From a virus (lineage: Duplodnaviria > Heunggongvirae > Uroviricota > Caudoviricetes), in IMG/VR virus record IMGVR_UViG_3300031760_000004, positions 28,294-92,293 of that record: 64,000 bases of DNA; one strand, 5' to 3'. Every line of letters begins with the position of its first letter. Position 1 is the first letter of the stretch. Made by a program: the position numbers and the translations under genes. Below are positions 3,806 through 41,488 of the stretch, piece after piece. The notes under the pieces were generated by a model, which was given only the letters and a program-made list of their open reading frames with translations, ran no database searches and was not told where the DNA came from.

Positions 3806-5509
3806 CTATTTTACAGGTTTTACACGGATGGAGCAACCTGAAACGGGCTTGCCGAGCTTCACCGGCTTTCCGGCGCCGCGCTCGACGTGGCAGTTCTCCG
3901 CCAGCTTCGAGACGATGTCGCGCCATGCGAATCCGGTCGACGAGTAGAACGCCACGTACGGGCTGAGGCCGAGGTCCGAGTACGCCCTCTGCACCGCGGC
4001 CCTCATCCGCTCCGCCGTCAGGTCCCGCCATTCCAGCCTCACCTTGACGGCCGGGAACCCTCCCCTGGCCGACACGGTGCAGTCGAACGCCTCACCGCCG
4101 TCTGCGACGACCCTGGAGTCCACGGACAGCCCCACGTTCGCTATCGGGTCCATGACGCCGTTTGCCCTTACCGCGAACACCCCGTCCGGGCCGCAGTGAA
4201 GCGTCCTGCCGTTGGCGAGCGCCACGTTGCTGGGCTCGCCGCACTCCGCGGAGTCGAGCACCGCCACGAGCCTCTTCGTCGACTCCAGGTCGCCGTTGAA
4301 GCCTCCCCTCACGGTGAGCTGCGCGTTCGCGGCCGACCGTATGAGCTCCCTCATCGCCGCCGGCACCCGCTCGGACGCCAGCATGTCCAGCACCGGCCTC
4401 GGGTCTCCGCCGGCCACCATCGCGGCGAACCTCTTCGCGGCCATGTGCTGCAGGTCGTTGGTGACGAGCCTCGCCCCGAACGGGTTCTCAAGGTCCTCCC
4501 TAGGTATCGATCCGACTGGGCACTTCCAGTCGAGTACGCGCATGAGCGGTACTCCCCCGGCCTTTATCTCCGGCGCCGCGAGGGTCCGCAGAACGAACTC
4601 CGTGGACACCGGGAAGTCCGAGGACGACACGACGTCTATGTTCGTGGCGTTCCTGAACGCCTCCGGGAGCGGGTACCCAGAGAACGCCACGATCGGCGGC
4701 GTCTTCGCGGACGACAGCGCCCACAGCGCGTACAGCCTGGCCGCGGCCTCGGGCCTCTCCACCGCAAGCAGCTTCTGCCCGGACTCCGCCAGCTCCTCGC
4801 CGAACACCCCGGCGGTCGGGTGCGTCACGACGGCGGTGTACCTGAACGACTTGTCGGTGGTGTCGAGGACCTCTATCCTGGTGACCTCACCGTTCATGGT
4901 GTAGGGGTACAGGATCAGGCACGACTTGGCGTACTTCGGCTTCTCGAGCTCTCGCAGGCACCTGGGAACCTCGGACCCGTCAGCGGAGAACAGCCCTACG
5001 TCCGGGTGGAGGAGCTTCACGTTGAGCCTCGACAGGCCGGGCCGTATCCCGGCCTTCTCCGGGCATTCGCGCAGCCTCGCCCTGGCCACGGCCAGCCACG
5101 CCTTGAGCATCGTCTGCGACTTGGCCGTGTCGAGGTACAGCTCCGCGTCCTCCTCCGACATCGGCTCCGGAAGGCAGTCCGACAGCTCGCCTCCCTCCAT
5201 GAACATCCTCACGGCGTCGGCGACCGATATCTTCAGCGCCATCGACGCCAGCGACGCGGCGTCGCCCCTGAACCGGCACGCCGGGTTCGAGCATGAAAAC
5301 ACGACGCTGGGGCCGCGTGTGGCGGAAAGGCAGGCCTCGCCGTCCGGATGCAGCGGGCACTCCCATCTCCGGGGGTCGATGCCCGGGCTAGGCTTTCCGT
5401 TGACAGTGGCGAGGATTTTGCCTATACTTGTACCGAAGTGACGTATGAGCTTGTCCGGATAGACATTCATTGGCCTGTGATCCCGTTTTGTGGTAGAATA
5501 TCTTATCAT
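3806..5509 (-). CDS. Hypothetical protein with a Cys-rich, zinc-ribbon-like N-terminus
   Basis: 567 aa ORF, first gene of the minus-strand operon. N-terminus has WECPLHPDGEACLSA...FSCSNPACRF. No confident family assignment. Confidence 0.5.
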   Translation of the reverse strand: MIRYSTTKRDHRPMNVYPDKLIRHFGTSIGKILATVNGKPSPGIDPRRWECPLHPDGEACLSATRGPSVVFSCSNPACRFRGDAASLASMALKISVADAVRMFMEGGELSDCLPEPMSEEDAELYLDTAKSQTMLKAWLAVARARLRECPEKAGIRPGLSRLNVKLLHPDVGLFSADGSEVPRCLRELEKPKYAKSCLILYPYTMNGEVTRIEVLDTTDKSFRYTAVVTHPTAGVFGEELAESGQKLLAVERPEAAARLYALWALSSAKTPPIVAFSGYPLPEAFRNATNIDVVSSSDFPVSTEFVLRTLAAPEIKAGGVPLMRVLDWKCPVGSIPREDLENPFGARLVTNDLQHMAAKRFAAMVAGGDPRPVLDMLASERVPAAMRELIRSAANAQLTVRGGFNGDLESTKRLVAVLDSAECGEPSNVALANGRTLHCGPDGVFAVRANGVMDPIANVGLSVDSRVVADGGEAFDCTVSARGGFPAVKVRLEWRDLTAERMRAAVQRAYSDLGLSPYVAFYSSTGFAWRDIVSKLAENCHVERGAGKPVKLGKPVSGCSIRVKPVK

Positions 5510-5512
5510 AGA
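5486..5512 (+). promoter_or_regulatory. Putative sigma70-type promoter with extended -10 (TTGGCC-18-TGgTAGAAT) in a divergent intergenic region
   Basis: tTGGCCtgtgatcccgttttgTGGTAGAATatcttatcat lies upstream of the 5560 gene. AGGGAG ribosome-binding site 9 nt before the ATG. Confidence 0.35.
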
Positions 5513-5559
5513 ACGAGAACTATGGTCAAAGGAACCTAAGGCAGGGAGATGGCTGACAC

Positions 5560-6852
5560 ATGGACATTACCGACGACACCCTACACTCCAACATGCTGCG
5601 CATATTCCGGGACGGAAAGGTCCCGGAGTACGTGCTTGACGCTAACCCGAACGACATGACCAAGGCCGCCACGGCCAAGTTGCCGGACGCCCTGTTCGCC
5701 GACCGGGTAAACAGGCGCTACCCGATCGACTCCAAGGCCAGCACGTGGCTGTCGGCGGCGTACTTCGCCAAGACGGCGTCCGGGGACGCGTACTCCTCCG
5801 AGGCCCTCAGGGGTCTGGTGCGGGACACCATCAAGCTCGCCGCCGACAAGTACGGGATACGCAAGGACGTCGACGAGGCCATGGAGGCGCTGTCACGCGG
5901 CCCCGCGGAGAAGAAGGCCGCGGACGACGAGTCCAACTACGGGTGGCCCTCAGAGAAAAAGTACCCCATGTTCGACGAGCACGGGGTGAAGATGGCGAAC
6001 AGCTACTTCGCCGAGAACTGCTTCAACTACCCGCCGGCGATGCGCCGCACGATCGCTGAGCGCATCTTCCAGAAGTGCGCCGAATACGGCGTGGAGGCCA
6101 ACGACGTCGTCCGCCGCGAGGCCGGGCAGGGGTTCAACCTCCGCGAGGACGTGGGCGTGGAGCTGGTGGACCGCGTCAAGATGGCGAGCCACGACAGCCC
6201 CGAGCTGGCGTCCGCCCTGGCCGGCGCCGCCCAGGCCATGCTTGAGATGCCCATGGACCGGTACCAGGGCAGCCTGGCCAAGTTCGCGGCCCTGCTCGAC
6301 CGCTTCGACGAGGAGACCGGGTTCGCAGATCGCTACGGCGTCCGCTTCCGCTCGCCTATGGAAATATTCCACGGTCGCAACATAAAGGAGGCCTCCGACT
6401 TCCTGGACGACTCCGTGCAGCTCGGCGGCGACCTGTTCAGCATCACCAAGCTCGCCGGTCTCCCCATGGACCTGTTCACCTCCGCGCTGGGTGATGATTT
6501 CGGCGATATGATCCGCGGATGTGATGGCGGCTCATGCGGCTCGATGAAGGCCATGCGCATCACCAAGAAGGTTCCGGGCGGCCTGATGCGCATCACGATT
6601 TCCGGCGGCGTGCCCGAGATGATGGACGGCGGGTTCGGGTTCGACTCCGACAAGCCGATCGACGTCGAGGACACGGAAGACGCGGAATGCAATCCCGATG
6701 AATGCGAGAAGGCTGAGGAGCCGAAGGAGTTCGAGGAGGACGACGGCGGCGAAGGCGTCATCGACGTCAAGAAGCTCGGAAAGGCCCTGAAGGCGCTCCC
6801 GGAGCGCGACAGGAACGCGCTTCGCAAGGCGATTGAACTGTACATGGACTAA
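5560..6852 (+). CDS. Hypothetical protein with a highly acidic C-terminal region (possibly scaffold or virion-associated)
   Basis: 430 aa. Good ribosome-binding site. C-terminal D/E-rich tail (DVEDTEDAECNPDECEKAEEPKEFEEDDGGEG). Confidence 0.55.
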   Translation: MDITDDTLHSNMLRIFRDGKVPEYVLDANPNDMTKAATAKLPDALFADRVNRRYPIDSKASTWLSAAYFAKTASGDAYSSEALRGLVRDTIKLAADKYGIRKDVDEAMEALSRGPAEKKAADDESNYGWPSEKKYPMFDEHGVKMANSYFAENCFNYPPAMRRTIAERIFQKCAEYGVEANDVVRREAGQGFNLREDVGVELVDRVKMASHDSPELASALAGAAQAMLEMPMDRYQGSLAKFAALLDRFDEETGFADRYGVRFRSPMEIFHGRNIKEASDFLDDSVQLGGDLFSITKLAGLPMDLFTSALGDDFGDMIRGCDGGSCGSMKAMRITKKVPGGLMRITISGGVPEMMDGGFGFDSDKPIDVEDTEDAECNPDECEKAEEPKEFEEDDGGEGVIDVKKLGKALKALPERDRNALRKAIELYMD

Positions 6853-7400
6853 TGAGGACCACAATGACACGCTACGAACAGGGATTCATGAACAAGTGCG
6901 CCGAGTACGGCGTGGACGGGCAAACCGCCAGACAAATGCTTAAAGTTGCATGGCCGTGGTCAAGTAAGAAAGACGATTCGATCTACCTGGACAAAGTTCC
7001 GCACGAATCAAGTGATACGTTTTTGCCTAGTTTAGGTAAAAAACCTAAATACCATTCACTGGCAACCGCGTTTCAAAAAAGTATGAAACCAAATACTGTA
7101 GGCCAATTACTGCTTACGCTTGACGACAAAGACCCGAATATCCTAAAAGAATACACCGTTGCCACCGATGCTCCGGACTCATGGTCAGAATCCGATGAGT
7201 GGAAACTTATAGCACATGGAGTTGACACAATGAGGAAAAACAAAATAAAGAGGCTTCTTATTGCCATGACTAACTCAGGAAAAAACAGCTCGCCTTATCG
7301 TGTATGGACTGGAGACGTTGTATCACCGAAATCCAAAATGGATGATGGCAACGACATATCCTCGTTGTTTTTTAACGGAGAAGGCATTAGACTAAACTAG
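6852..7400 (+). CDS. Hypothetical protein; compositionally chimeric gene with a GC-rich 5' end and an AT-rich (~40% GC) body
   Basis: 182 aa ORF. A sharp drop in GC from about 6960 to 7400 against a ~63% background. Confidence 0.45.
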   Translation: MRTTMTRYEQGFMNKCAEYGVDGQTARQMLKVAWPWSSKKDDSIYLDKVPHESSDTFLPSLGKKPKYHSLATAFQKSMKPNTVGQLLLTLDDKDPNILKEYTVATDAPDSWSESDEWKLIAHGVDTMRKNKIKRLLIAMTNSGKNSSPYRVWTGDVVSPKSKMDDGNDISSLFFNGEGIRLN

Positions 7401-7401
7401 C

Positions 7402-8109
7402 ATGGATCCATTCCTCCAGCAATTCGGCCACGACCTGTCGGACCCGTTCACGGTCCGGCAGGACCTCATACAGTCGCCCGAGACCATGGCGACGGTGGTC
7501 CACGCCATCATCCGCGACAAGTACGGGGACGAGGCGTACTGGTGGGACCCGCTCACGGTGTCGCTGGAGCTCAAGGCCGACTTCCAGGTCGACCCGTGCC
7601 CGGAGTTCATGGACCGCTGGGGGGCCATGCAGGTCGTCATGACGGGCGACGCCTTCTTCAACCGCGTAGACGCCTTCTTCGGGGTCTGCAACGCCCTGTC
7701 GGACGGAAACCCGTTCTTCGGCGCCTTCGACCCAGTAACGGTCGAGGAGGCCGCCTGGGCGGTGGCGGAAGTCGGAATGAACAGGGACATGCTCCCGTTC
7801 TCCCCGACCATCAAGAAGTACTGCTCGATCATATTGGAGAAGAACGGCTACGGAAAGGGGAACTTCCCGCCGATTTTCGACGTGGTGTTTGACGACGACA
7901 CCACGCTCAAGGACATACGGGCCGGCCTGGTCTCGGACGAGAACGGCAGGGCCCTCCACCAGTACCTTTCGGAGAACGTCGACGACATCGCGAAGCAGTT
8001 CGACTCGCTGGCCGACCTGAAGAACGTGGACGACGACCTGCTCAAGAAGGGGCTTGTCAACGCCTTACGGGAGAACCACAATGAACGCACGCAGCAAAAT
8101 CCTGCTTAA
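7402..8109 (+). CDS. Hypothetical protein
   Basis: 235 aa ORF, tightly packed with its neighbours. Confidence 0.5.
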   Translation: MDPFLQQFGHDLSDPFTVRQDLIQSPETMATVVHAIIRDKYGDEAYWWDPLTVSLELKADFQVDPCPEFMDRWGAMQVVMTGDAFFNRVDAFFGVCNALSDGNPFFGAFDPVTVEEAAWAVAEVGMNRDMLPFSPTIKKYCSIILEKNGYGKGNFPPIFDVVFDDDTTLKDIRAGLVSDENGRALHQYLSENVDDIAKQFDSLADLKNVDDDLLKKGLVNALRENHNERTQQNPA

Positions 8110-8413
8110 GCAGGCTCAGATGCTCGCCCTGCACAACAAGTACGTCAGGGCAATGGAGGCCGGCCGGCGCGAGATCGAGAAGATCGCGGCGGCCGAGATG
8201 GCGAAGCAGGCCATGTACCGCAAGGTGATAGCCGGTCTGAAGGGGCTGGGGAAAGAGGCGCAAACGCAAGCGCAGCCCCCGTCCGTAGTCAAGGCCGTCG
8301 TGTCTCCGGCCGCCAGAAAGCGGCGAAACACGTTGCAGCAGGTGCAGCAGGCGCGACAGGAATACCGGAGCATGCTGCCGAACAATCCAACTCAACCGCA
8401 TAAGGTGGGATAA
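8081..8413 (+). CDS. Hypothetical small protein (helical, K/A/Q-rich)
   Basis: ORF 8054..8413. Internal Met at 8081 gives MNARSKILLKQAQ... Start is uncertain. Confidence 0.4.
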   Translation: MNARSKILLKQAQMLALHNKYVRAMEAGRREIEKIAAAEMAKQAMYRKVIAGLKGLGKEAQTQAQPPSVVKAVVSPAARKRRNTLQQVQQARQEYRSMLPNNPTQPHKVG

Positions 8414-8414
8414 C

Positions 8415-8750
8415 ATGAGCCAGGACAAGATCATAGCCGGTGTCACGGCCCTAATCGGGCTTGCGACAATGTTTTTCGGGATGTCCCATGAGACGGCGTC
8501 CGTCATCCAGTCCGCCGTCCCGGAGGTTGTCGGCGGGGTGATGGCCATGTGCACTGTCATTTCGTACCTGAACAACCGACAGAAGAACAAGGAGCGCGAG
8601 TTCCAGAAGCGCTGCCAGATCTTCCAGGCGATGGCGTACAGCGGGTCCCCTGTGTCAGAAAACGGTTCACCCAGGACCCCCGACGAAGTGAAACACGTCG
8701 AGGACCACGTCGCGAAGGCCGCCAGGGCCGCGTTCGGCATGGAAATCTGA
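8415..8750 (+). CDS. Small membrane protein
   Basis: 111 aa. Hydrophobic segment IIAGVTALIGLATMFFG. Confidence 0.45.
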   Translation: MSQDKIIAGVTALIGLATMFFGMSHETASVIQSAVPEVVGGVMAMCTVISYLNNRQKNKEREFQKRCQIFQAMAYSGSPVSENGSPRTPDEVKHVEDHVAKAARAAFGMEI

Positions 8751-9202
8751 TGAAGAAGATCTCGAAACTCGTCAAAAGGATACCGGCCGTCGGCCACGAG
8801 GCCGGCGACGAAGTCCCGAAGCGCGTCCTGATGAAGTTCGAGGACGGCGAGACCGGCAGGACCAAGTGCGCCGCGTTCATCGAGATAGCCGACACGCAGC
8901 CTCTGAGGACCAGGGGTCTTTCAAAGAGGGCCTCCATCGGAAGAAACGACGGCATGTGGTTCGACTGCCGCGGGCCGTTCTGGATGAAGGACGTCGAGTT
9001 CCCGCTCGACCTCTGCTACCTTGACGAGTCCGGCGCGGTCACGGAGAAGATCGCCATGGCCAAGGACAAGGCCGGCCGCACGCTGTATTCGAGGACGAAG
9101 TACGCGTCCGTGCAGGCGGTCGAGCTTCCGGCCGGGTTCTGCGACAGGCACGGGATAAAAGTGGGCGACTTCCTCGTCCCGTTATTGAAACTGGGGGACT
9201 GA
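8750..9202 (+). CDS. DUF192 (COG1430)-like protein
   Basis: Internal Met of ORF 8549..9202. MKKISKLVKR...GMWFDCRGPFWMKDVEFPLDLCYLDESGAV resembles the DUF192 core. Confidence 0.5.
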   Translation: MKKISKLVKRIPAVGHEAGDEVPKRVLMKFEDGETGRTKCAAFIEIADTQPLRTRGLSKRASIGRNDGMWFDCRGPFWMKDVEFPLDLCYLDESGAVTEKIAMAKDKAGRTLYSRTKYASVQAVELPAGFCDRHGIKVGDFLVPLLKLGD

Positions 9203-9205
9203 CAC

Positions 9206-9994
9206 ATGGCTGACGCACGTTTCAAGCCCATAGGCGGCATGTTCCAGGGCGTACGCGGCTCCACCGACGTAGGAGGAGCCAAAAAGTACGCCGGCAAGCT
9301 TGTTAAGCTCAATTCAGAAGGCATTGTCGACGAAACGTGCCTTCCGCCCGACGTGGCACGCGCCGCGGACCTGTCCCACCGTCTCGACGTCGAGATAGAG
9401 GAGCGGACGGAAGGCGACCTCGCCCTTTCAGGGCGCATAACCGACCTGGGACGCGTGGTGGACTCGAACTACGACGGGCTTTCGGCCTCGATCGGAGATA
9501 CGGCCGCCCGGCTGCAGGCGCTCGACGAGCGCGAAGCGGGCGACATCGCCTCAGTCACCGGTGAAATAGACGGCGTCAAGACGCGCATGGACGCCGCCGA
9601 GCGGGGCATACAGGACAACGCGCACAGCATTTCGGACATAAACAACGCCATATCCGACTTGGTTGACGCGGAAACCAGTCTGAGGGCGAGGATCGCGGCC
9701 CTTGAAACGTCCGTAAACGGCGACGACACGCACAAGGGCCTCGTTGAGAAGGTATCGGACCTGAACCTGGCGTACAACAGGCTCGACGCGGCCGTGACCA
9801 CGCTCAACGGCGAGCTCGCGTCGTGGGCCACCAACCTTTCAAACCTCCTCCAGGAGGTCCAGAACATGAAGCAGGACATGGACGCGTACAAGGACAGCAC
9901 GGACACGCATCTCGGCGAGATAGACGACGAAATCTCGTCAATCAACGCCAAGATCGAAGAGATCTACAACAGGCTCGTGCCGCCCAATTCGTGA
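9206..9994 (+). CDS. Coiled-coil protein (structural or assembly-like)
   Basis: 262 aa with long heptad-like stretches (RLQALDEREAGDIASVTGEIDGVKTRMDAAERGIQDNAHSISDINNAISDLVDAETSLRARIAALETSV). Confidence 0.5.
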   Translation: MADARFKPIGGMFQGVRGSTDVGGAKKYAGKLVKLNSEGIVDETCLPPDVARAADLSHRLDVEIEERTEGDLALSGRITDLGRVVDSNYDGLSASIGDTAARLQALDEREAGDIASVTGEIDGVKTRMDAAERGIQDNAHSISDINNAISDLVDAETSLRARIAALETSVNGDDTHKGLVEKVSDLNLAYNRLDAAVTTLNGELASWATNLSNLLQEVQNMKQDMDAYKDSTDTHLGEIDDEISSINAKIEEIYNRLVPPNS

Positions 9995-10011
9995 GACAGG
10001 AGCCGCAAAGA

Positions 10012-10404
10012 ATGAAGGGCGAGACAGCTGCGGACGCCGGAGGCCCGGATTCCGGCAAAACGAGGGGCGCAAGACGGTTCAGCTCCCGCACGATCGAGAA
10101 ACGGGACGCAAAACGCCTGTTTTTATTGAAGTTCCACGCCATGCACAAGGTGAACCACATTCCGTGGTCCGACTGCGCGGCGATGTACGAGGCCGAAACC
10201 GGCGAGGCCGTGACGGAGGACCAGCTTAGGAACCGCGTGAAACGCGCCGTGATGGACGCAGGATTCGTCAAAATCTCCGAATTTCCGGAAAAAATCGTGG
10301 TTTCGGTGTTCGAACTGTCGTTTTTCGGGTGTGTCTGGTGCGCAATCCGCAAGTTTTTCTCAAAAATAGGTCGTTTTAGCCAAAAATCAGCCAAAATTTG
10401 CTGA
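10012..10404 (+). CDS. Hypothetical protein; C-terminus may be spurious read-through into an A-tract repeat region
   Basis: Internal Met of ORF 9823..10404. The last ~30 codons translate the phased A/T-tract repeats. Confidence 0.3.
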   Translation: MKGETAADAGGPDSGKTRGARRFSSRTIEKRDAKRLFLLKFHAMHKVNHIPWSDCAAMYEAETGEAVTEDQLRNRVKRAVMDAGFVKISEFPEKIVVSVFELSFFGCVWCAIRKFFSKIGRFSQKSAKIC

Positions 10405-10470
10405 AAAACGGCTGAAAAATGGCGTTTTTAGGCAAAAATCGCCGCAAAACCGCAACAAGGACCAAAAAAT
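10330..10470. repeat. Helically phased A-tract and T-tract direct repeats (unit GCnnAAAAAtnGC, at least 7 copies about 11 bp apart)
   Basis: agccaaaaatcagcc / agccaaaatttgc / gctgaaaaacggc / gctgaaaaatggc / ggcaaaaatcgcc / gccgcaaaaccgc / accaaaaaatgcc, preceded by T-tracts (tcgtttttcggg, caagtttttctc). Confidence 0.6.
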
Positions 10471-11689
10471 GCCGTCCACAGCGCTTACACCAGATCCGGG
10501 GCTGGCCCAAGTCCTTTCAGAACTCCATCCCGCCGAGCCAGTCGTGCAGTACCGCAGCAACGTATCGCTCCTGATTCTCGGCGGAAGCTACAATGTTGGT
10601 TCTACAAGGGTGTTCATGCCCACGGATCTCATTCTGAACACCGCGCTCATGAACGTCGAGCCGGTCAACTACGCGTTTCCCATGTCAGTGGACATCGACG
10701 TTGGTGGATCCGCGTCCTCGATTCCTCCGGGAAGCGACTGCGGCATATATCTCGGCGATGACGGAAAGCTCAGATTGCTGCTATACGCCGGCGACGAAAT
10801 ATACGTCACTGGCGGAAATCCGCTGACAATGAGGTGTCTCGGCGGTTATCACACGCTGTGCTACGGAGTCGGGGTCCTAGGGATGCGCCCGGAGTCAGTG
10901 TACCCCGGCCAGGCACACCCGCTTTCATCCTTCACGGCCGGCGACATACTGCCAAAATCGGTATGGGCGTTCAATTTCAGGCCGGACTGCCCTGATCCCA
11001 CCGGGATGGTGTACATTTCGGAGACTAACACGTGGATCGACATATACCCGGCGTCCGGAAGCATGTCGAACCCCAAGTCCGTTTTCTCGTACAACCCCTC
11101 GGCCTTCGGGCAGGACGTGATACGGCGGAGGACCAGCGGCCACGACCAGACGGTCTACGTCGACCTGCACGCCTCATACTCGGGGTTCATGACCGGTTTC
11201 GCGGCGGTCGGCAAGAGGCTGCCCTATTCGGACGAGTTCTATTTCGCGGCCCTTGGGTCGAACTGCCGTACGATCGCCGACGGTACGTTTATAGACTATG
11301 TGCCTGGCCACATGCCGTACGCGGACTGGCACACCACGTATCTCAAGACTGGCGGATGGCTTGACACGAAAAACGAGAGGATGATATCGTCCATCGGGTG
11401 CGAAGCAATGTGCGGCCTGGTAAACCACTGGCTGCAGGAGAGATACATACCTCAGGACGGAGGATATACGGCAACCGAGGTCGCGACGGGGAACGCGAAC
11501 TCCGAGGGTATGTACGCGTCTGGCACGTCGATATTGCTCGCCGGTGGAAGCTACAAGAACTTTGCCGCCAACATACCGGTGTCGGGACCGATGTGCCGTA
11601 GAATCGTCAATAACAACGTGTCGTTTACTGGCGGATACGACAACGCCGGGGCGAGAGGCGTGTGCCCGTGCCGGCAGACCGCGAGGTAG
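10469..11689 (+). CDS. Tail fibre / receptor-binding-like protein, paralog A
   Basis: 406 aa. Shares PKSVWAFNFRPDCPDPTGMVYISETNTWIDIYPASG and MISSIGCEAMCGLVNHWLQERY with the downstream 818-aa protein. Confidence 0.5.
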   Translation: MPSTALTPDPGLAQVLSELHPAEPVVQYRSNVSLLILGGSYNVGSTRVFMPTDLILNTALMNVEPVNYAFPMSVDIDVGGSASSIPPGSDCGIYLGDDGKLRLLLYAGDEIYVTGGNPLTMRCLGGYHTLCYGVGVLGMRPESVYPGQAHPLSSFTAGDILPKSVWAFNFRPDCPDPTGMVYISETNTWIDIYPASGSMSNPKSVFSYNPSAFGQDVIRRRTSGHDQTVYVDLHASYSGFMTGFAAVGKRLPYSDEFYFAALGSNCRTIADGTFIDYVPGHMPYADWHTTYLKTGGWLDTKNERMISSIGCEAMCGLVNHWLQERYIPQDGGYTATEVATGNANSEGMYASGTSILLAGGSYKNFAANIPVSGPMCRRIVNNNVSFTGGYDNAGARGVCPCRQTAR

Positions 11690-11692
11690 GGC

Positions 11693-14149
11693 ATGGCGGC
11701 CAGAAATCTGAGACAGAATGCGAAGTCGCGGAGGGATGCGTCGGACGACCCAGTGGTAGTTTTAGACCCGTCGCCGTCCGAAGGGCTGCGCGAAAGCTAC
11801 CCGGCGTCCCCGGTGGTGTCATGCCCGGACCCGGACCATGTCAAGGTTCTGTCTGGAAGGTACCTTGTCAACGGCAAGTTCGTGTTCATTCCGGAGGACA
11901 CCCTCGTGCGGCACCCGTACTCCAAAAAGAACAGGGTGAAGTTCCCCGGCAGGGACATGGCCGTGCTGCTCGGGTCGGACGCCGCGATAAAGCTGGCGGT
12001 GTTTGATCCGAGAATCGACATGGCGTCCGCAATCCGGGACGGCGTCGAGGTGTCAGGGATAAGATACCGGGTTCTCGGAGGCGTACACCTCCTGTGCGAG
12101 GGCACCGCGTCGCTCGACCAGTCCCACCCGCTGTTCGGGCTTGTTGCCGGATCGATGTTGCCGGCGTCGGCGTGGGCGCTCAACTTCAGGCCGGCGTGCC
12201 CCGATCCCAGGGCAATGGCCTATGTAAAGGAGACAGACGTCTGGGTTGACATATACAACGCGTCTGGGGACATCGCGGCGCCTGAAAGCCGGTTCGGAGG
12301 CATACGGCTTGCGGCGAGATCGCAGACTGAGCTGTCCACCGGGTTGGGAAACGTCGGCAAGCTCCTTCCCACGGATGCCGACTTCCTGTCGGCGGCCCTC
12401 GGCTCCAACGCCGGAACGACCGTGATGCAGAACCCCAACTTCGGTGCAAGGTTCGCGCTATACAGGAACAGCCAGTATAACGCGTTTAGACCACCGGAAG
12501 ACGGAGAGTACTACAGGAACGAGCGGAACGTGTATTACGCCGACCTGAAAAACGACACGACCGGTGGCCATGTAGACACGCGCTACCGCAGGATGGTGTC
12601 CGACATCGGGTGCGAGGAGATGTGCGGCCTGCAGCGGCAGTTTCTCAGGACCGTCAGGCCGGACGTGTCAAAAAACGTGTACAGAACTGTGGAGAAGTCA
12701 GTCCAATATCTGGAATGGGATTTCGCGGGCATATGCAGCTTCGGCTCCAACGCCGTTGAAATAGATCCCATGTGGTTTCAGGACGTCACCGCCTTCAACA
12801 TCTCCGCCGCATGCGCCGGCGGCGGGGCGTGCGACATGCAGGCGGCGTGCGGTCCGGCAAGCCGGTCAGGCACTTCCGCGGTGTCTCCCGGACCGAGCGA
12901 CCGGCCATCATCTTACAGTACATACCCGTTGGCGAGTCTTGTCGGAGACGAGCCGCCATACACCTTCAAATTCTACAGGGACGACATCCTGTCCGGAGAA
13001 AATCACCTCACCGAGGGGCCAAACCCGGACGCCATATTCGCACCGTACTATACCGGCTCCAGGGGGGCGAGCCCGTGCATACACATCAGCCTGGTACACC
13101 ACGAGGTGCCGTCCGGCATATTGCCAGACTTCATGTGGTTCAGGAACGTCTGGACGGAGCCGCTCGTGCTCAACTTCGAGAACACGGGTTACGGAAGCAT
13201 CAGGGCCGTGCTTGAGTTCTCGAGGCTGTCCGGGTCCATGAGCTGGAATCAGTACGAAGGGGCGCCAGAGGCCGACCGCGTGTTCAACCCCGGTGAGACC
13301 ATGTGCGTAAGGGCCCCGGTCGGAGTGGTCAACAACGCCTTCGGCAGGAGGTTCCGACCGCTGTCGCTTGGATCTTACTCCTACGACGACCGGTGGAAGC
13401 GTGTCACCGGCGCCGTGGAGGTCGGCGGAAACATCATGTCAGTGCTGGAGCATGGTGCCACGGAGTTCCCTGACTACACGACCCACTACGCGTTCCGCGA
13501 CGCCTTCAGCCAGTGCCCGTCGCTGCTGAGCTCGAGGAAGCTTGTGCTGCCGGCCAAGGTGGCGGTCTCGGGATGCTACTGCCAGATGTTCGGCGACATG
13601 AACGACAGGCCGTACCTCCCCTGGACAAAGTACATGGTCGACGCGCCGGAAATCCGCGCCATGCGCTTACGGGCCTCCACGACGTCGTCGTCGAGGATAT
13701 ACAGTCCGTTCGAATGGATGTTCGCGGGATGCACGGCGATGGTCGACCCGCCACCCGAGCTGCTCATGGAGTCAGCGCAGTACGAGGAGATGTTCCGGCA
13801 GTGCAGCTCGATGAGGCGTCCGCCGAGAATAACGGCCGAAGACTTCAGTGAGGATTCCGCCTGCTACCGCATGTTCCGTGGGTGCACGTCGATGAAGACC
13901 GTGTCGGTCCTTCATCCCGTGGGGCCTGTCGGGCCATACGCCATGTACCAGATGTTCGGCAACGGGTCGTCAGCGTCGGGAACCGGCATAAGGTACAGCA
14001 CCGAGAAGGGCGGCGACTACCAGTACGAGTGGAGTCTGCCGGAGCTTGGGTCAGGGTCCGACGGAGACAACGCCCTTACCGGAATGCTTAACGGAACCGC
14101 GGCCGTGCGCGGCCAGAAATACTACTTTACGGAGCCGCCGGTGGAATAA
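11693..14149 (+). CDS. Tail fibre / receptor-binding-like protein, paralog B, with C-terminal BspA/DUF285-like repeats (FxGCxSM)
   Basis: 818 aa. Central region paralogous to the 10469 gene (PASAWALNFRPACPDPRAMAYVKETDVWVDIYNASG; MVSDIGCEEMCGLQRQFL). C-terminus has repeated MFGDMND / MFAGCTAM / MFRQCSSM / MFRGCTSM / MFGNGSS motifs. Confidence 0.55.
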   Translation: MAARNLRQNAKSRRDASDDPVVVLDPSPSEGLRESYPASPVVSCPDPDHVKVLSGRYLVNGKFVFIPEDTLVRHPYSKKNRVKFPGRDMAVLLGSDAAIKLAVFDPRIDMASAIRDGVEVSGIRYRVLGGVHLLCEGTASLDQSHPLFGLVAGSMLPASAWALNFRPACPDPRAMAYVKETDVWVDIYNASGDIAAPESRFGGIRLAARSQTELSTGLGNVGKLLPTDADFLSAALGSNAGTTVMQNPNFGARFALYRNSQYNAFRPPEDGEYYRNERNVYYADLKNDTTGGHVDTRYRRMVSDIGCEEMCGLQRQFLRTVRPDVSKNVYRTVEKSVQYLEWDFAGICSFGSNAVEIDPMWFQDVTAFNISAACAGGGACDMQAACGPASRSGTSAVSPGPSDRPSSYSTYPLASLVGDEPPYTFKFYRDDILSGENHLTEGPNPDAIFAPYYTGSRGASPCIHISLVHHEVPSGILPDFMWFRNVWTEPLVLNFENTGYGSIRAVLEFSRLSGSMSWNQYEGAPEADRVFNPGETMCVRAPVGVVNNAFGRRFRPLSLGSYSYDDRWKRVTGAVEVGGNIMSVLEHGATEFPDYTTHYAFRDAFSQCPSLLSSRKLVLPAKVAVSGCYCQMFGDMNDRPYLPWTKYMVDAPEIRAMRLRASTTSSSRIYSPFEWMFAGCTAMVDPPPELLMESAQYEEMFRQCSSMRRPPRITAEDFSEDSACYRMFRGCTSMKTVSVLHPVGPVGPYAMYQMFGNGSSASGTGIRYSTEKGGDYQYEWSLPELGSGSDGDNALTGMLNGTAAVRGQKYYFTEPPVE

Positions 14150-14171
14150 CGTGCGACACTGTCGGAATAGG

Positions 14172-14231
14172 GCTTAAAAAAGGCCCTGAAAAGGGTATAA
14201 ACACATAGAAGGAATGGGTTAATCCTTCTAT
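14172..14231 (+). promoter_or_regulatory. Conserved intergenic module, copy 1: CTTAAAAAAGgCCCTGAAAAGGGTATAAacacat plus hairpin AGAAGGA...TCCTTCT
   Basis: One of three near-identical modules (also 17194 and 17720). Each has a CCCTGAAAA(c)GGG mini-palindrome, a TATAA box and a downstream stem-loop. It lies upstream of the 14369 gene. Confidence 0.4.
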
Positions 14232-14368
14232 TAGCCGAAAGGCGTTTGCGGCGCGGGTCCGGGTGGATTCGCGCCTTCTCTTTACGGCGCCGGCCCGGGT
14301 GGGTCGGCGTCATTCTTTCACCGCCCCTGCGCAATGCGTTCGGGGCACATGTCCAAAGGAGGACAAAA

Positions 14369-14854
14369 ATGATACTTGCTACTCTGTTCAACAGGTGGGT
14401 CGAAACCGACCCGAATTCCGTTCATCACGGTGCGGACCTTCCCGATGAGGGCGTGGCCATCGACATTGATGGACATGTGTTCAACCAGTTCGTGAAAGAT
14501 CGCGGCTGGTGGGAGTGGGAATGGGAGGACACGGGTCGGACCGTGGCTATCCCGCTGGCGCTCCGCTTTGCCTTCAAAGAAGTCGAGGCGCGCTGCGCCA
14601 TGGCTGAAAAGGCCGTGGCGGCTTACAAGGAGACTGAGAGGAAGTTCCATGATGTGGCAGCCAAGGATCCCGCCACCGCGTGGTGGCCCGGAGGGGCCAC
14701 TCCGGGCAGCCTTACCGACAAGGTTGAGGCGGACAAGTGGGAAAAGGCCCTGGACACCTCGCACCGCGCCGAGCTTGAAGCATGGCGTCTACGCGACGAA
14801 GCGGTCGACAAGCTGAATAGGCTCGCCGAGCCTCTTCTAAAGGTTGTGGCGTAA
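14369..14854 (+). CDS. Hypothetical protein (W-rich WWEWEWED motif)
   Basis: Internal Met with ribosome-binding site AAAGGAGGACAAAAATG within ORF 14246..14854. Confidence 0.5.
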   Translation: MILATLFNRWVETDPNSVHHGADLPDEGVAIDIDGHVFNQFVKDRGWWEWEWEDTGRTVAIPLALRFAFKEVEARCAMAEKAVAAYKETERKFHDVAAKDPATAWWPGGATPGSLTDKVEADKWEKALDTSHRAELEAWRLRDEAVDKLNRLAEPLLKVVA

Positions 14855-15090
14855 TGAAAGTTCTTCTACTGGGGGACTTGAGCCCAGACGGTACCGTTCC
14901 GTCAATTCCGTACAAAGCCGTTCCGGTGGCTTCTTTCGAAGAGGCCAGAGACTGGGTGCGGCATGATTCCACGCGATTAGGCCTTAGGGCCGAATTGCGT
15001 GAGAACGAAGGTTGGTGGTGGGATTATTTCAAGACTGATGGAGAGCGCGTGTATAGGTACTACGTACGCATGCTCGACCTGCACAAATAA
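14854..15090 (+). CDS. Hypothetical small protein
   Basis: 78 aa. ATGA start/stop overlap with the upstream gene. Followed by a terminator. Confidence 0.45.
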   Translation: MKVLLLGDLSPDGTVPSIPYKAVPVASFEEARDWVRHDSTRLGLRAELRENEGWWWDYFKTDGERVYRYYVRMLDLHK

Positions 15091-15094
15091 TTGA

Positions 15095-15130
15095 AAGGCC
15101 CGTCCCTGAAAGGGGCTCCGGGCTTTTTCT
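15095..15130 (+). terminator. Rho-independent terminator (repeat family, copy 1)
   Basis: GGCCCGTCCCTGAAAGGGGCTCCGGGCTTTTTCT: nested GC stems plus a T-run. Confidence 0.6.
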
Positions 15131-15160
15131 CAACACCAGCTAACTTCAGGAGAAAACATC

Positions 15161-15388
15161 ATGAGCACGATGCTTGACAATGTCAACCACCCCCTCGTCA
15201 AGCTCCGCATCGTCGACAACCTCGACACCTTCGCGGAGCTGGTCGTAAAGGCGGCAAAAGCCGCCGATGAGGTCTACGAGGCCTCGGTACAGCGCGATGA
15301 CAAAAGCGCTGACGCACTACTAAACGACCCCAGGCTCGAAGCCCTGTGGGACCTCGAGGCCTTTTTCGAGGGGTGGATCGACAACTAG
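15161..15388 (+). CDS. Hypothetical small protein
   Basis: 75 aa. Ribosome-binding site GGAGAAAACATCATG. Flanked by terminators. Confidence 0.45.
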   Translation: MSTMLDNVNHPLVKLRIVDNLDTFAELVVKAAKAADEVYEASVQRDDKSADALLNDPRLEALWDLEAFFEGWIDN

Positions 15389-15391
15389 CAA

Positions 15392-15428
15392 AAGCCCGTC
15401 CCCGCAAGGGGCTCCGGGCTTTTCTTTA
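15392..15428 (+). terminator. Rho-independent terminator (repeat family, copy 2; GCAA tetraloop)
   Basis: AAGCCCGTCCCCGCAAGGGGCTCCGGGCTTTTCTTT. Confidence 0.65.
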
Positions 15429-15436
15429 CCTGCCAC

Positions 15437-15453
15437 GCGCTGTGTGCTATACT
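15437..15453 (+). promoter_or_regulatory. Putative extended -10 promoter TGcTATACT upstream of the LpxR-like gene
   Basis: tgtgTGCTATACTgttacc lies 7 nt before the ATG-proximal region. Weak -35. Confidence 0.3.
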
Positions 15454-15459
15454 GTTACC

Positions 15460-16365
15460 ATGAAAAAGACACTTGCAATCTTTTTATCACTTCTGGCCCT
15501 CGGGCTGCACGCGGGCCGCGTGGAAGTCACCGCCGAGAACGACGTGGTCTTCGACAACTGCGACGAGGACTACACGCACGGAACTAGAATCACGTACTTC
15601 AACGACTCCGGCTGGCGCTTCGGGGCACAGCAGCAGATCTACACCCCGGACGACATAACCCTCCGCGACCAGGTTCCCGGAAGGCACCCGTACGCCGGCG
15701 CGCTGATGGGCTTCGTTGGATACCGCGACAACTACCTAGCAAAAGGCCCGGTGAGCCTCTACAACGACTACGAGCTGCTTCTTGGCGTGCTGGGGCCGTC
15801 CGCCCTCGGCAAGGAGACGCAGAGGACGATCCACAAGTGGCTTGACTGTCACATGCCAGAGGGCTGGGACCACCAGCTCCATGACGAGGCAATCGTGCAG
15901 GGCCAGTACTTCCACGGGCTTGACTGGAGGGTCATCGGCGAGGACAAGGGCTGGTCGGCCCACCTGGAGCAGGACGCTGGCGTTCTTCTCGGCACCTACC
16001 AGATCGCCGCCGGCGGAAGCCTCACGCTCAAGGCCGGGTACGGCTTCGGAATCGGAGAGTCCGACCACGAGATGTACGTCAGGTCGGCCGTCAGGCACCC
16101 GTTCAGCTCCGTGTACGTCCTCGGTGGCTGCGAGGGCCGGTGGTGGCTCCGCAACGAGCTTCTCGACGGCAACGCGCACTACGTCGGAAACCATGACACC
16201 CTCACGGTGGACAAGGAGCCGCTCACAGGCTGCCTCAAGGCCGGCGTCGGCCTCAGGATCGGCGGGGTCGAGGTGCTGGCCGTGTGGATGTGGTGGTCAC
16301 GCGAGTACAAGACGCAGGAGTCGCCGGCCGACTACGGCTCCGTCAGGCTGGGGGTGGATTTCTGA
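15460..16365 (+). CDS. Secreted LpxR (DUF2219)-like lipid A 3-O-deacylase homolog (tentative)
   Basis: Signal peptide MKKTLAIFLSLLALGLHA. In the mature protein, ENDVVF places Asn9-Asp10 at the positions of LpxR catalytic residues. It also has a YTHG motif and His near position 120-123. Beta-barrel-like G/Y-rich C-terminus. Internal Met of ORF 15346..16365. Confidence 0.5.
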   Translation: MKKTLAIFLSLLALGLHAGRVEVTAENDVVFDNCDEDYTHGTRITYFNDSGWRFGAQQQIYTPDDITLRDQVPGRHPYAGALMGFVGYRDNYLAKGPVSLYNDYELLLGVLGPSALGKETQRTIHKWLDCHMPEGWDHQLHDEAIVQGQYFHGLDWRVIGEDKGWSAHLEQDAGVLLGTYQIAAGGSLTLKAGYGFGIGESDHEMYVRSAVRHPFSSVYVLGGCEGRWWLRNELLDGNAHYVGNHDTLTVDKEPLTGCLKAGVGLRIGGVEVLAVWMWWSREYKTQESPADYGSVRLGVDF

Positions 16366-16430
16366 TGCCTTTGTTCGCGGCGTTGTTCACGATTCTCCTT
16401 CTGGAGCTCATTGTAAAGGAGTAGGGCGCG

Positions 16431-17180
16431 ATGCTCTCGAAGTACATTTGGAACAGGATCAGGCTTTTGTGGGGTTTTATGACAGGCAACACCAGAATCG
16501 CGGACCGCGGCGACACGGCGGTGGTATGCGTCGGAATGCAGACTTCGTCGAAGTACGGGGCGTGCCCCGGGGCGCAGGTGGACTCCGACTCGATGGCGTC
16601 GCTGCTCGCCAGATACGGCAACGTGCAGCTGCTTCAGAACGGCGGGGCGACAGTTTCGTCCGTCTCGGCCGTCATGAAGGCCGGAGCCGAAAAGAAGCTG
16701 TTCATATTCTACTATTCGGGACATGGCGGGCAGGGCAAGGACGCCAAGGGCCAGAACGGGGTGTCCGAGTACCTGTGCCTCAACAACGGCCCCCTGCACG
16801 ACTACGACATCTGGAGCATCGTGTCCCAGGCGAAGGGGCGCGTCGTCATGGTGTTCGACTGCTGCCACTCGGCCACCATGTTCAGGGACCAGTCGGCAGA
16901 ACCGGAAGAGCCGTTCGACAACGCCGGCTTCTCGTTCTCCATGCTGCAGGGGCCGCTGGCCCTTGGGGAGGTCAATCTCCTGGTATGGTCCGGATGCCCG
17001 GCCAACAGCTATTCATACGGGGACGCCAACGGCGGAGTGCTGACGAATGGGCTTCGCAAGGGGTTCAGCGAGTCGGACACCTACGACGACGCGTGGAGGC
17101 GCATGGAGCGTGCAGCGAGGAGCCAGAGACCGGCGAGGACCGTGATCGGTTCCGGCTTCGGCGGCCTGGTGTTCAGGTAG
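16431..17180 (+). CDS. Metacaspase / peptidase C14 caspase-like protease
   Basis: 249 aa. Catalytic His motif FYYSGHGGQ and Cys motif VFDCCHSAT match the metacaspase HG / D-x-C-H-S dyad signatures. Confidence 0.7.
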   Translation: MLSKYIWNRIRLLWGFMTGNTRIADRGDTAVVCVGMQTSSKYGACPGAQVDSDSMASLLARYGNVQLLQNGGATVSSVSAVMKAGAEKKLFIFYYSGHGGQGKDAKGQNGVSEYLCLNNGPLHDYDIWSIVSQAKGRVVMVFDCCHSATMFRDQSAEPEEPFDNAGFSFSMLQGPLALGEVNLLVWSGCPANSYSYGDANGGVLTNGLRKGFSESDTYDDAWRRMERAARSQRPARTVIGSGFGGLVFR

Positions 17181-17193
17181 CCGGGGAGCGCCG

Positions 17194-17274
17194 CTTAAAA
17201 AAGACCCTGAAACGGGTATAACTACATAGTCGGAAGATTTACTTCGGACCGTCCGGGTGGGCGGTCCTTTTTCG
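17194..17274 (+). promoter_or_regulatory. Conserved intergenic module, copy 2 (CTTAAAAAAGaCCCTGAAAcGGGTATAActacat plus hairpin), followed by GGACCGTCCGGGTGGGCGGTCC-TTTTT stem-loop
   Basis: Between the metacaspase gene and the 17257 gene. The second hairpin has a T-run and may terminate the LpxR-metacaspase transcript. Confidence 0.4.
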
Positions 17275-17628
17275 TCTTCCGCGCATAACTTGAACTGGAG
17301 GTTCACCATGAAAGCTGAAAGACAACTCGAAATCGCAAACAAGCTGGAGGCGCACGAACGGATGTTGTTCACACCGTTTGCGTGCCTGTCACTCGGGCTT
17401 CTGCCCGTGATGTTCATAGGCGTGTTCTGTATCGGCGGGTACAGCCTGTTCACGAGAATCGTGGGATGGGTGTGCTTCGCCTACATGCTGGTCACCGTTT
17501 CGCTGTTCTTCGCGATCCTGATCCTGCATTCAGCGGAAGTCTGGTTCAGAGACCGGTGGTGGAGGAAAACGGAAGACCCGTGGAAGGTCTGGCAAATAGA
17601 CCACTACGGAAAGATCATCGACGACTGA
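17257..17628 (+). CDS. Small integral membrane protein (2 TM)
   Basis: 123 aa. LSLGLLPVMFIGVFCIGGYSLFTRIVGWVCFAYMLVTVSLFFAILIL. Ribosome-binding site GGAGG. Confidence 0.5.
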   Translation: MGGPFSSSAHNLNWRFTMKAERQLEIANKLEAHERMLFTPFACLSLGLLPVMFIGVFCIGGYSLFTRIVGWVCFAYMLVTVSLFFAILILHSAEVWFRDRWWRKTEDPWKVWQIDHYGKIIDD

Positions 17629-17632
17629 GCTA

Positions 17633-17670
17633 AAAGCCCGTCCCCGCAAGGGGCTCCGGGCTTTCTTTTA
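17633..17670 (+). terminator. Rho-independent terminator (repeat family, copy 3)
   Basis: AAAAGCCCGTCCCCGCAAGGGGCTCCGGGCTTTCTTTT, identical core to copy 2. Confidence 0.65.
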
Positions 17671-41487: not shown

Positions 41488-41488
41488 C

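Follow-up and report, generated by a model that had tools for sequence, protein, structure and literature searches.

The window, by which we mean the whole 64,000-nucleotide (64-kb) stretch of DNA that was analysed, comes from an uncultured phage found in rumen-type metagenomes, and most of the genes scanned in this phage are without annotation. A small conserved gene for a protein of 130 amino acids (10012..10404, plus strand), which is also called on an identical public contig, is followed on the same strand by two paralogous tail-protein genes, the first coding for 406 amino acids (10469..11689; phrog_11262, E=8e-31) and the second for 818 amino acids (11693..14149; phrog_11262); the two products match each other by BLASTP with E=1e-42. 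The 3' end of the small gene carries an array of short A and T tracts, about 120-200 bp in extent, which continues through the intergenic spacer and lies directly 5' of the 406-amino-acid gene, and its position upstream of two paralogous tail genes is thus as described in an earlier annotation made from the letters alone (the sequence-only reading). The gene for the large terminase TerL (22602-24521) stands alone on the minus strand, 12 kb from the array. A BLAST search with positions 9000-13000 gave no match among the INPHARED phages, a search of IMG/VR with the tail protein gave none either, and no tRNAs were found.

The 130-amino-acid protein has 15 homologues with 53-96% identity, which are conserved through ...GCVWCAIRKFFSKI and have a variable tail beyond it; in the protein alignment the motif KFFSKI is conserved and the residues past it vary. 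Four residues are invariant in the family (H45, C55, C107, and C110). An AlphaFold model of low confidence (pLDDT 64) is helical, with three helices followed by one long helix, and together with the invariant residues it suggests a small zinc-stabilised domain. A membrane anchor in segment 94-112 (hydropathy 1.82) was considered and is doubted, because the invariant Cys and His point to metal binding. Sequence and profile searches of Pfam, PHROGs and the PDB gave no family match, and a search among representatives of 1.8 billion proteins returned just 7 members of the family. Foldseek with the model found nothing significant and nothing below E=0.7; the weak matches were mostly helix-turn-helix proteins, and small terminase chains of G20c were present at a non-significant E=3-9. 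Alignment by hhalign with SPP1 G1P and lambda Nu1 gave probabilities below 1%. For a family as divergent as the small terminases, all these searches are weak tests. When a profile of the protein was used to look for the host in bacterial and archaeal genomes, no match was obtained.

Phasing and predicted curvature of the array

Between 10321 and 10470, 12 runs of at least four A or four T occur within 150 bp, and the runner-up among the 150-bp bins holds 6; the whole 64 kb contains 217 such tracts, a mean of about 0.5 per bin. The GC content of this stretch is about 41% vs 60% for the window, and mononucleotide shuffling of the 140-bp array sequence produced 1.8 tracts on average and 6 at most. 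From left to right, the tracts are T5 at 10321, T5 at 10354, A5 at 10362, T4 at 10374, A5 at 10382 and A4 at 10393 in the first half, and A5 at 10404, A5 at 10415, T5 at 10425, A5 at 10434, A4 at 10446 and A6 at 10464 in the second. At least seven A-tract repeats had been proposed for this block in the sequence-only reading; the repeats are there, but the count is too low, for the T-tracts are in-phase members too.

The dense part of the array (10354..10404, no strand assigned) coincides with the end of the small gene, where it covers codons 115-130 (KFFSKIGRFSQKSAKIC) and the stop codon. The following 64 bp (10405..10468, no strand) are non-coding, include the ribosome-binding site AAGGA at 10457-10461, end at the ATG of the tail gene and form the sole sizeable gap in the gene string 5560-14149, in which the other gaps measure 0-20 bp. 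On the left, a sparser edge inside the small gene (10270..10353, no strand) has A4 at 10270, A6 at 10289 and the T5 at 10321, with tract spacings of 20, 31.5 and 33 bp that are roughly multiples of a helical turn. The sliding 10.3-bp Fourier amplitude shows that the left side of the curved zone is gradual, starting from about 10270, and that the 10.3-bp periodic signal ends abruptly at the start codon of the 406-amino-acid tail gene (10469). A weaker cluster of A/T runs with spacing of about one turn is present in the 5' part of the small gene (10040..10140, no strand), where the Fourier amplitude reaches 7.3 vs a 99th percentile of 5.8. Genome-wide phasing of A-tracts was rejected as the cause of the array, background periodicity being weak.

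Starting from 10356, the tract centres follow one another at steps of 8, 11.5, 8.5, 10.5, 11.5, 11, 10, 9, 11.5 and 19 bp, and when A and T runs are fitted jointly the best period of the centres is 10.25-10.30 bp, with a resultant of 0.86-0.91. Pooling the arrays of the family of related loci described below, T-to-A steps have a mean of 8.8 bp, A-to-A steps a mean of 10.7 bp and A-to-T steps a median of about 11 bp (mean 10.4, sd 2.1, with one outlier). Such a step asymmetry is expected if each tract bends toward the minor groove at a point that is displaced 3' on the A strand. By the same tract rule, repeats of A4T4 are curved and repeats of T4A4 are straight.

The units of the array share little else. 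The repeat consensus GCnnAAAAAtnGC given in the sequence-only reading is loose, with only the tract and G/C-rich spacers recurring, and the description of the array as iteron-like is not supported, as the units have no specific sequence in common beyond the tract and the arrays of relatives cannot be aligned. The array does not have the head-to-tail copies of one unit that make up a simple tandem repeat or minisatellite, Tandem Repeats Finder reporting just 2.2 copies of the 11-bp unit GCTGAAAAACG. The same program detected a tandem duplication of the 11-bp unit GCTGAAAAAYG (10400..10423, plus strand), which is evidence that the array grows by copying units one helical turn long. A repeat-family search revealed in addition two plus-strand copies of a 26-nt block, AAAA(A)TrGnCGTTTT(T)AGsCAAAAATC, at 10363-10388 and 10415-10440, that is 52 bp or five helical turns apart. 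The duplications of 10-11-bp units and of the 52-bp block show growth of the array with its phase kept.

Curvature was predicted with a dinucleotide wedge model (Bolshoy-type roll, tilt and twist values) and expressed as the ratio of end-to-end distance to contour length over 120 bp, lower values meaning more curved DNA. The controls behaved as they should: A4T4 repeats were curved (0.44) and T4A4 repeats straight (0.99), and A5 repeats were curved at a spacing of 10-10.5 bp and straight at 12 and 15 bp. For the array the ratio is 0.28-0.31 (0.31 at 10398), the median of the window is 0.976, and the second-lowest value is 0.80 at 10091, which falls in the weaker cluster of the same small gene. 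Mononucleotide shuffles never gave a ratio below 0.76. In 3000 further trials, which preserved the tracts and re-partitioned the spacers between them, the observed curvature of the array was never reached. The summed turning of the array is about 300 degrees and near-planar, vs about 80 degrees in control segments, and if each of 11 tracts is roughly taken to bend by about 18 degrees, the total is about 200 degrees; the tract bends are thus predicted to add up in one plane, turning about 120 bp of DNA through roughly 200-300 degrees as a fixed curve. Scored in this way, lambda ori (0.70) ranks second in curvature within lambda and the SPP1 pac region has a ratio of 0.83, so that the predicted bend of the array exceeds both and would be an extreme case.

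Judged by tract number, helical spacing, orientation asymmetry and its outlying position in the wedge model, the array has every sequence-level property of curved phased A-tract DNA and is, as far as prediction goes, a phased A-tract bend of the textbook kind. The proposal of intrinsically bent DNA made in the sequence-only reading is thus strongly backed by the period, the asymmetry of the tracts and the modelled curvature, the curvature prediction that it called for placed the array as a far outlier in the 64-kb window, and with 6 tracts in the next 150-bp bin and 0.80 as the next curvature ratio the array is indeed the only such structure there.

The array in related phages and selection on DNA shape

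Through the small protein, the loci of 15 distinct lineages were recovered. A phased array is found at the same gene end in 11 of them: it is dense in the window and L021, L003/L009, L004, L005-7, L013, L018, L019 (with 19 tracts) and L020, and shorter in L011 and L015. No array is present at that position in L008, L010, L014 and L017. The arrays of the relatives contain 6-19 tracts, have resultants of 0.85-0.96 and, when long, periods of 10.2-10.4 bp; for L015, with six tracts, the best-fit period is 10.75 bp. Beyond the small gene the arrays cannot be aligned to each other. As relatives keep a phased array that does not align, selection would appear to act on the shape of the array and not on its sequence. 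The 176-kb contig of an array-less lineage has no strong curve within the 21 kb scanned, and in L008 a phased cluster of lower tract density lies in a different small gene, 1.5 kb upstream. The absence of the array from 4 of the 15 lineages argues against an essential single-copy site.

The relation of the array to the reading frames varies. In relatives without the array, the small gene ends on a stop codon that overlaps the start codon of the gene behind it. A spacer of 64-88 bp, taken up by the array, separates the two genes in the window, L018, L019 and L020, and in L019 and L020 the array extends beyond the downstream start codon; in L003-L005 it is translated. The genes 3' of the array are of three unrelated kinds, namely a tail gene in the window and L018, a protein of 175-179 amino acids with the motif NGVGPDRW in L003-5 and L011, and a protein of 166-175 amino acids starting with a Lys/Phe/Leu-rich helix in L019 and L020. 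The array is in fact the left border of a plastic region, in which gene content differs by lineage and whose right border is a conserved Peptidase_C14 gene (16431-17180 in the window).

Codon usage in the small gene departs from that of the genome. Genome-wide, AAA makes up 10% of Lys codons and TTT 10% of Phe codons; in the small gene the corresponding numbers are 9 of 13 and 5 of 11. Across the family, small genes vs flanking genes use AAA at 65% vs 30%, TTT at 47% vs 20% and CAA at 71% vs 12%, and only run-extending codons are enriched, whereas NAT codons are not. In L003 and L004, the part of the array that follows the stop codon is read as extra N-terminal residues of the downstream protein, and 5 of 7 substitutions are synonymous in that frame; even so, A5 tracts occur at 10-bp spacing in three different codon phases, and the array block is 92-98% identical between the two lineages vs about 80% for flanking coding sequence. 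The near-identical loci L018 and L013 differ in the coding tail by an indel of 10 bp (GAAAAAGCCT), the length of a helical turn, which causes a frameshift. Selection on DNA shape is indicated by the choice of codons, by the changing codon phase and by the frameshifting 10-bp indel.

An amphipathic Lys/Phe helix, in which 3.6 residues correspond to about 10.8 nt, was considered as the source of the periodicity and rejected, since the spacings are 10-11 bp and not multiples of 3, the tracts are found in each of the three codon phases, and four arrangements have 64-88 bp of non-coding array. In the sequence-only reading, confident translation of the region as the C-terminus of ORF 10012-10404 was held to speak against a bent array. 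Positions 10330-10404 are in fact translated and 10405-10468 are not, and the finding survives because of this non-coding part and because of the DNA-level constraint in the coding part. It is therefore very probable that the DNA of the array is intrinsically curved and that it is maintained by selection. The array would then be an unusually clean natural case of selection on the shape of DNA rather than on its sequence, in which an element overrides the codon preference of the genome, frameshifts are tolerated if one helical turn is added, and the array switches freely between coding and non-coding status.

Possible functions of the curved element

The reading that we prefer, with a rough probability of 0.35, is that the array is an accessory cis site, read by its shape and wrapping a protein, which would control the exchangeable cassette downstream. 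The small in-phase bends of 11-12 A/T runs would add in one plane to a pre-formed curve, and a shape-reading protein, for which the alpha domains of RNA polymerase, a nucleoid protein or the adjacent small protein are candidates, could wrap around this curve or dock on it as an accessory architectural site. The site lies where a conserved block of genes, mostly of unknown function, meets an exchangeable downstream block, and the array would most likely set downstream expression independently of the upstream operon. It might stimulate a non-canonical internal promoter in the manner of curved DNA or an UP element, or it might bind a nucleoid protein or a small protein and so gate read-through. 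As the genes of array-less relatives overlap and are translationally coupled, the array would uncouple downstream expression from the upstream operon, or tune it.

An accessory architectural site is favoured because the two other broad classes of explanation each fit in part. An origin or a pac site, being essential and present once, would agree with the uniqueness in 64 kb but not with the dispensability in 4 of 15 lineages. Slippage alone would account for the turnover, yet not for the asymmetry of phase, the bias in codons or the local hyper-conservation.

Several observations speak against transcription control. A scan of 10300-10500 for sigma-70-type promoters and for terminators found no core promoter and nothing credible in the array; two minus-strand matches that resembled terminators are artefacts of the A/T tracts. 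Good sigma-70-type promoters were found elsewhere, at 5400-5428 and 15425-15453. The phage also has a promoter-like motif of its own, cTTAAAAAAGnCCCTGAAAnGGGTATAA, at 14160, 17194 and 17720, with relatives of the motif in other loci. In this motif A-tracts about a turn apart stand upstream of TATAA, and promoter-like sites (14111, 17181 and 15391) are among the weaker 10.3-bp periodic peaks of the window, which speaks for a link of the periodicity to promoter regions. In or after the array, the GGGTATAA-type motif of the phage is absent, its TATAA part missing. The array thus has the in-phase A/T tracts upstream of a gene that are typical of UP elements and upstream curved DNA and lacks a core promoter downstream of them, and a strong promoter with UP element, as the sequence-only reading had offered, is not borne out by either kind of promoter motif. 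Moreover, the array reaches past the start codon in L019 and L020 and is translated in L003-L005, and so is not simply upstream of a promoter. There is one such array in 64 kb, yet the genome has many promoters; there is none in the 21 kb of the relative, and four lineages do without. The curvature itself is a predicted one.

The small protein itself may be the partner. According to this alternative, which we consider unlikely, the 130-amino-acid protein binds the curved DNA as a multimer and either autoregulates its gene or organises or tethers phage DNA. The array is anchored at the 3' end of the small gene whichever gene follows, run-extending codons are enriched over the whole small gene, and many cis sites lie in or beside the gene of their binding protein. 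The predicted three helices and long helix with the invariant H45, C55, C107 and C110, as well as the weak and non-significant Foldseek matches, which are mostly to helix-turn-helix proteins, are consistent with such a role. On the other hand, the protein belongs to no known family and its model is of low confidence (pLDDT 64), four lineages keep the gene without the array, and the phased cluster of L008 lies 1.5 kb off in another gene. An elaborated form of this idea, which seems similarly improbable, is that the array represents a new shape-only cis site serving a putative zinc-stabilised, helix-turn-helix-like 130-amino-acid protein, that a multimer of this protein would be encircled about once by the DNA, which is curved beforehand, and that the complex would organise the genome in packaging initiation, partition or tethering without any sequence relationship to the terminase and Par systems now known. 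The phage family to which this form of the idea refers consists of large (150-190 kb) uncultured rumen phages.

It is also doubtful that the array has little or no selected function and is a turnover-prone 10-11-bp minisatellite, arisen from a Lys/Phe-rich tail, that persists as a recombination junction for cassette exchange. Such an origin would agree with the duplicated units (GCTGAAAAAYG twice in the window, the 10-bp unit CTAAAAACCG three times in the array of L019), the 10-bp indel between L018 and L013 and the 52-bp block repeat, with the position of the array at the border of a region of lineage-specific gene content, and with its dispensability in four lineages. However, slippage leaves unexplained the phase of the T-tracts and the asymmetry of 8-9 vs 11-12 bp, the mixture of 10- and 11-bp units that gives 10.3 bp in nearly every lineage, the gene-wide enrichment of run-extending codons, and the identity of 92-98% between the arrays of L003 and L004 vs about 80% in their flanks.

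A packaging site of the SPP1/SF6 type, in which a ring of small terminase picks about 100 bp of bent DNA by its shape and the small gene would be the small terminase gene, appears quite unlikely. The array is a single site in 64 kb; with about 110-170 bp and a shape that is conserved without sequence, it resembles what the conformational-selection model of SPP1-like pac describes, and it lies in and beside the gene of a small helical protein, for which the small terminase chains of G20c were among the Foldseek matches, but with E=3-9. A bent segment of about 100 bp is thus predicted here, whereas the neighbouring protein, in tests that are weak for so divergent a family, matched neither the terminase families of Pfam or PHROG nor SPP1 G1P nor lambda Nu1, TerL is encoded 12 kb off on the opposite strand, and the array is missing in L008, L010, L014 and L017, including the 176-kb contig with no strong curve in 21 kb. 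Furthermore, the public contigs that carry the array of the window hold it internally. The suggestion of a pac or cos region in the sequence-only reading could not be confirmed: the adjacent protein shows no terminase similarity, and four of 15 lineages are array-less.

A replication origin, also suggested there, is very unlikely. It would combine bent DNA with an easily opened AT-rich stretch partly inside a gene, in the style of lambda ori, and the array is the one island of 41% GC in a genome of 60% GC and is predicted to be strongly curved; lambda ori, inside gene O, is flagged by the same wedge model. But there are no sequence-specific iterons for an initiator, no DnaA or IHF consensus sites were found at the array, GC skew turns at about 5.5 kb, at a strand switch, and has no inflection at 10.4 kb, the replication genes lie 18-37 kb off at 28-48 kb and not adjacent to it, and the array is missing in four of the 15 lineages. 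Hardly plausible, finally, is an RNA element in the form of an A/U-rich, weakly structured intercistronic leader that aids translation or lets a GC-rich mRNA be processed: the ribosome-binding site and start codon are either reached or spanned by the array, the final tracts before the start are sense-strand A-runs where the array is non-coding (window, L018, L019 and L020) and the RNA fold z-score is just -2.4, but nothing at the RNA level would call for a period of 10.3 bp or for the T/A asymmetry, Rfam gave no match and start-codon pairing, judged by eye, is apparently not conserved in L018.

Comparison with known systems

Structurally, the array is closest in kind to classical phased A-tract DNA such as the kinetoplast minicircle bend and synthetic A5-6N5 repeats, with which it shares runs of A4-6, G/C-rich spacers and a spacing of one helical turn. 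The helical repeat of A-tract multimers was reportedly put at about 10.34 bp by Drak and Crothers (1991), and the period of 10.3 bp in the array matches this value. The preference of the A4T4 type over the T4A4 type is also common to both. Unlike the classical bends, the array mixes A and T runs, is partly coding and is found in a phage of 60% GC, and its curve is a predicted one.

Curved DNA and UP elements occur upstream of bacterial and phage promoters (Aiyar, Gourse and Ross 1998; Estrem et al. 1998, both listed in PMC3326320). The array resembles UP elements in having in-phase A/T tracts directly 5' of a gene, and its sub-motif of a T-tract, 3-4 nt and an A-tract is similar to TTTTNNNAAA, the core of the UP consensus. 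It differs from them in that no -35/-10 elements follow, in that it is far longer (11-19 tracts) and in that it continues into downstream coding sequence in some relatives. Centromere-like iteron arrays such as R1 parC and pBtoxis tubC consist of units of about 10-12 bp beside the gene of a small DNA-binding protein. Like these, the array repeats at about 10-12 bp and could wrap a protein scaffold; its units, in contrast, have no specific sequence. A gene for a partition NTPase was not found among the neighbouring genes scanned.

The origin of lambda is located inside gene O, and its iterons are intrinsically bent (PMC7466680). Both lambda ori and the array are single bent sites in a tolerant part of a coding sequence, but the array, unlike the origin, has no specific repeats, no initiator gene and no adjoining AT-rich block. 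The pac site of SPP1-like phages has about 100 bp with runs of 5-7 AT pairs between GC pairs and is wrapped round a ring, and its shape is read by conformational selection through a ring of weak DNA-binding (helix-turn-helix) domains (PMC4737164). By analogy, the pac DNA of SPP1/SF6 may be regarded as the nearest documented functional counterpart of the array. Both comprise about 100 bp of bent AT runs beside the gene of a small protein, and in pac the shape is what is read; the array differs in having no terminase-like neighbour, in its distance from TerL, in its absence from some relatives and in its much stronger predicted curvature (0.3 vs 0.83).

Within this comparison, the array is a highly non-random and, by prediction, unusually strong curved-DNA element whose structural class is known but whose setting is unexpected. 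Discovery of a partner protein would make the element a handle on regulation or genome organisation in large rumen phages with hardly any annotated genes, and if none is found, it would serve as a test case for the origin and turnover of curved DNA.

The small protein family and a displaced cluster

Four residues, His45, Cys55, Cys107 and Cys110 (the GCxWC motif), are invariant across the family of the conserved 130-aa small protein (window 10012-10404, plus strand), and this invariance suggests a CCCH metal site. Residues 94-112 form a hydrophobic segment (hydropathy 1.82) that, given the putative metal site, may belong to the protein core rather than act as a membrane anchor. In the 234-aa protein P0019, a distant homologue of the small protein, the N-terminal domain is fused to the type of protein encoded downstream of the array in the related loci L019 and L020, and because of this fusion the small gene and the L019/L020-type downstream gene may be functionally linked.

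In the related locus L008, the phased A/T-tract array is absent from its usual position at the 3' end of the small gene, and a sparser cluster is found instead at L008:2523-2690. This cluster, which contains ten A/T runs at multiples of about 10.5 bp and has a curvature ratio of 0.57, lies 1.5 kb upstream of the usual place, within a gene for a Lys-rich product of 61 aa.

The plastic interval and putative control elements

The interval that separates the small gene from the Peptidase_C14 gene (window 16431-17180) is hyperplastic (window 10469-16430 versus L003:4345-5003). One gene is present there in L003, whereas L004, L005 and L020 have two each. In the window the number is about six, among them both tail paralogues (406 aa, 10469-11689; 818 aa, 11693-14149) with their own terminators and promoters. 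Three intrinsic terminator hairpins (window 15115-15150, 15389-15425 and 17629-17665) have almost the same sequence (AAAGCCCGTCCCcgcAAGGGGCTCCGGGCTTTT), indicating that a single terminator sequence is used repeatedly.

A promoter-like repeat, cTTAAAAAAGrCCCTGAAAnGGGTATAAnnACATAG, occurs in the window as two exact-core copies and one variant (regions 14160-14311, 17194-17275 and 17720-17850), and every copy is followed after 60-110 nt by a GC hairpin with CCGGGTGG and a T-run. No Rfam match was obtained for these three regions. In relatives, AAAAAnnGGTTATAA was found 5' of genes (L003:5860, L004:6914 and L011:2749). Motif and hairpin together resemble a promoter specific to this phage, followed by a short transcript or leader with secondary structure.

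Strand organization and replication genes

The strand switches at a divergent control region (window 5380-5560), which is also the turning point of both cumulative GC skew and AT skew. It contains two promoters: the one at 5400-5428 is of the sigma-70 type and close to consensus (TTGACA-17-TATACT), and the other lies at 5470-5499. The gene at window 6852-7400, with a local GC of 38-41% and a GC3 of 0.47 versus 0.8-0.9 in its neighbours, is probably a recent acquisition.

The large terminase gene (window 22602-24521), which matches GpA_ATPase weakly, is isolated on the minus strand with plus-strand genes around it, and no small terminase was recognized near it. The adjoining 496-aa minus-strand ORF (window 24568-26058, GC3 0.56) is a shadow of plus-strand genes. 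A 956-aa family A DNA polymerase is encoded at window 41408-44278 and combines an N-terminal uracil-DNA-glycosylase-superfamily domain with a 3'-5' exonuclease domain.
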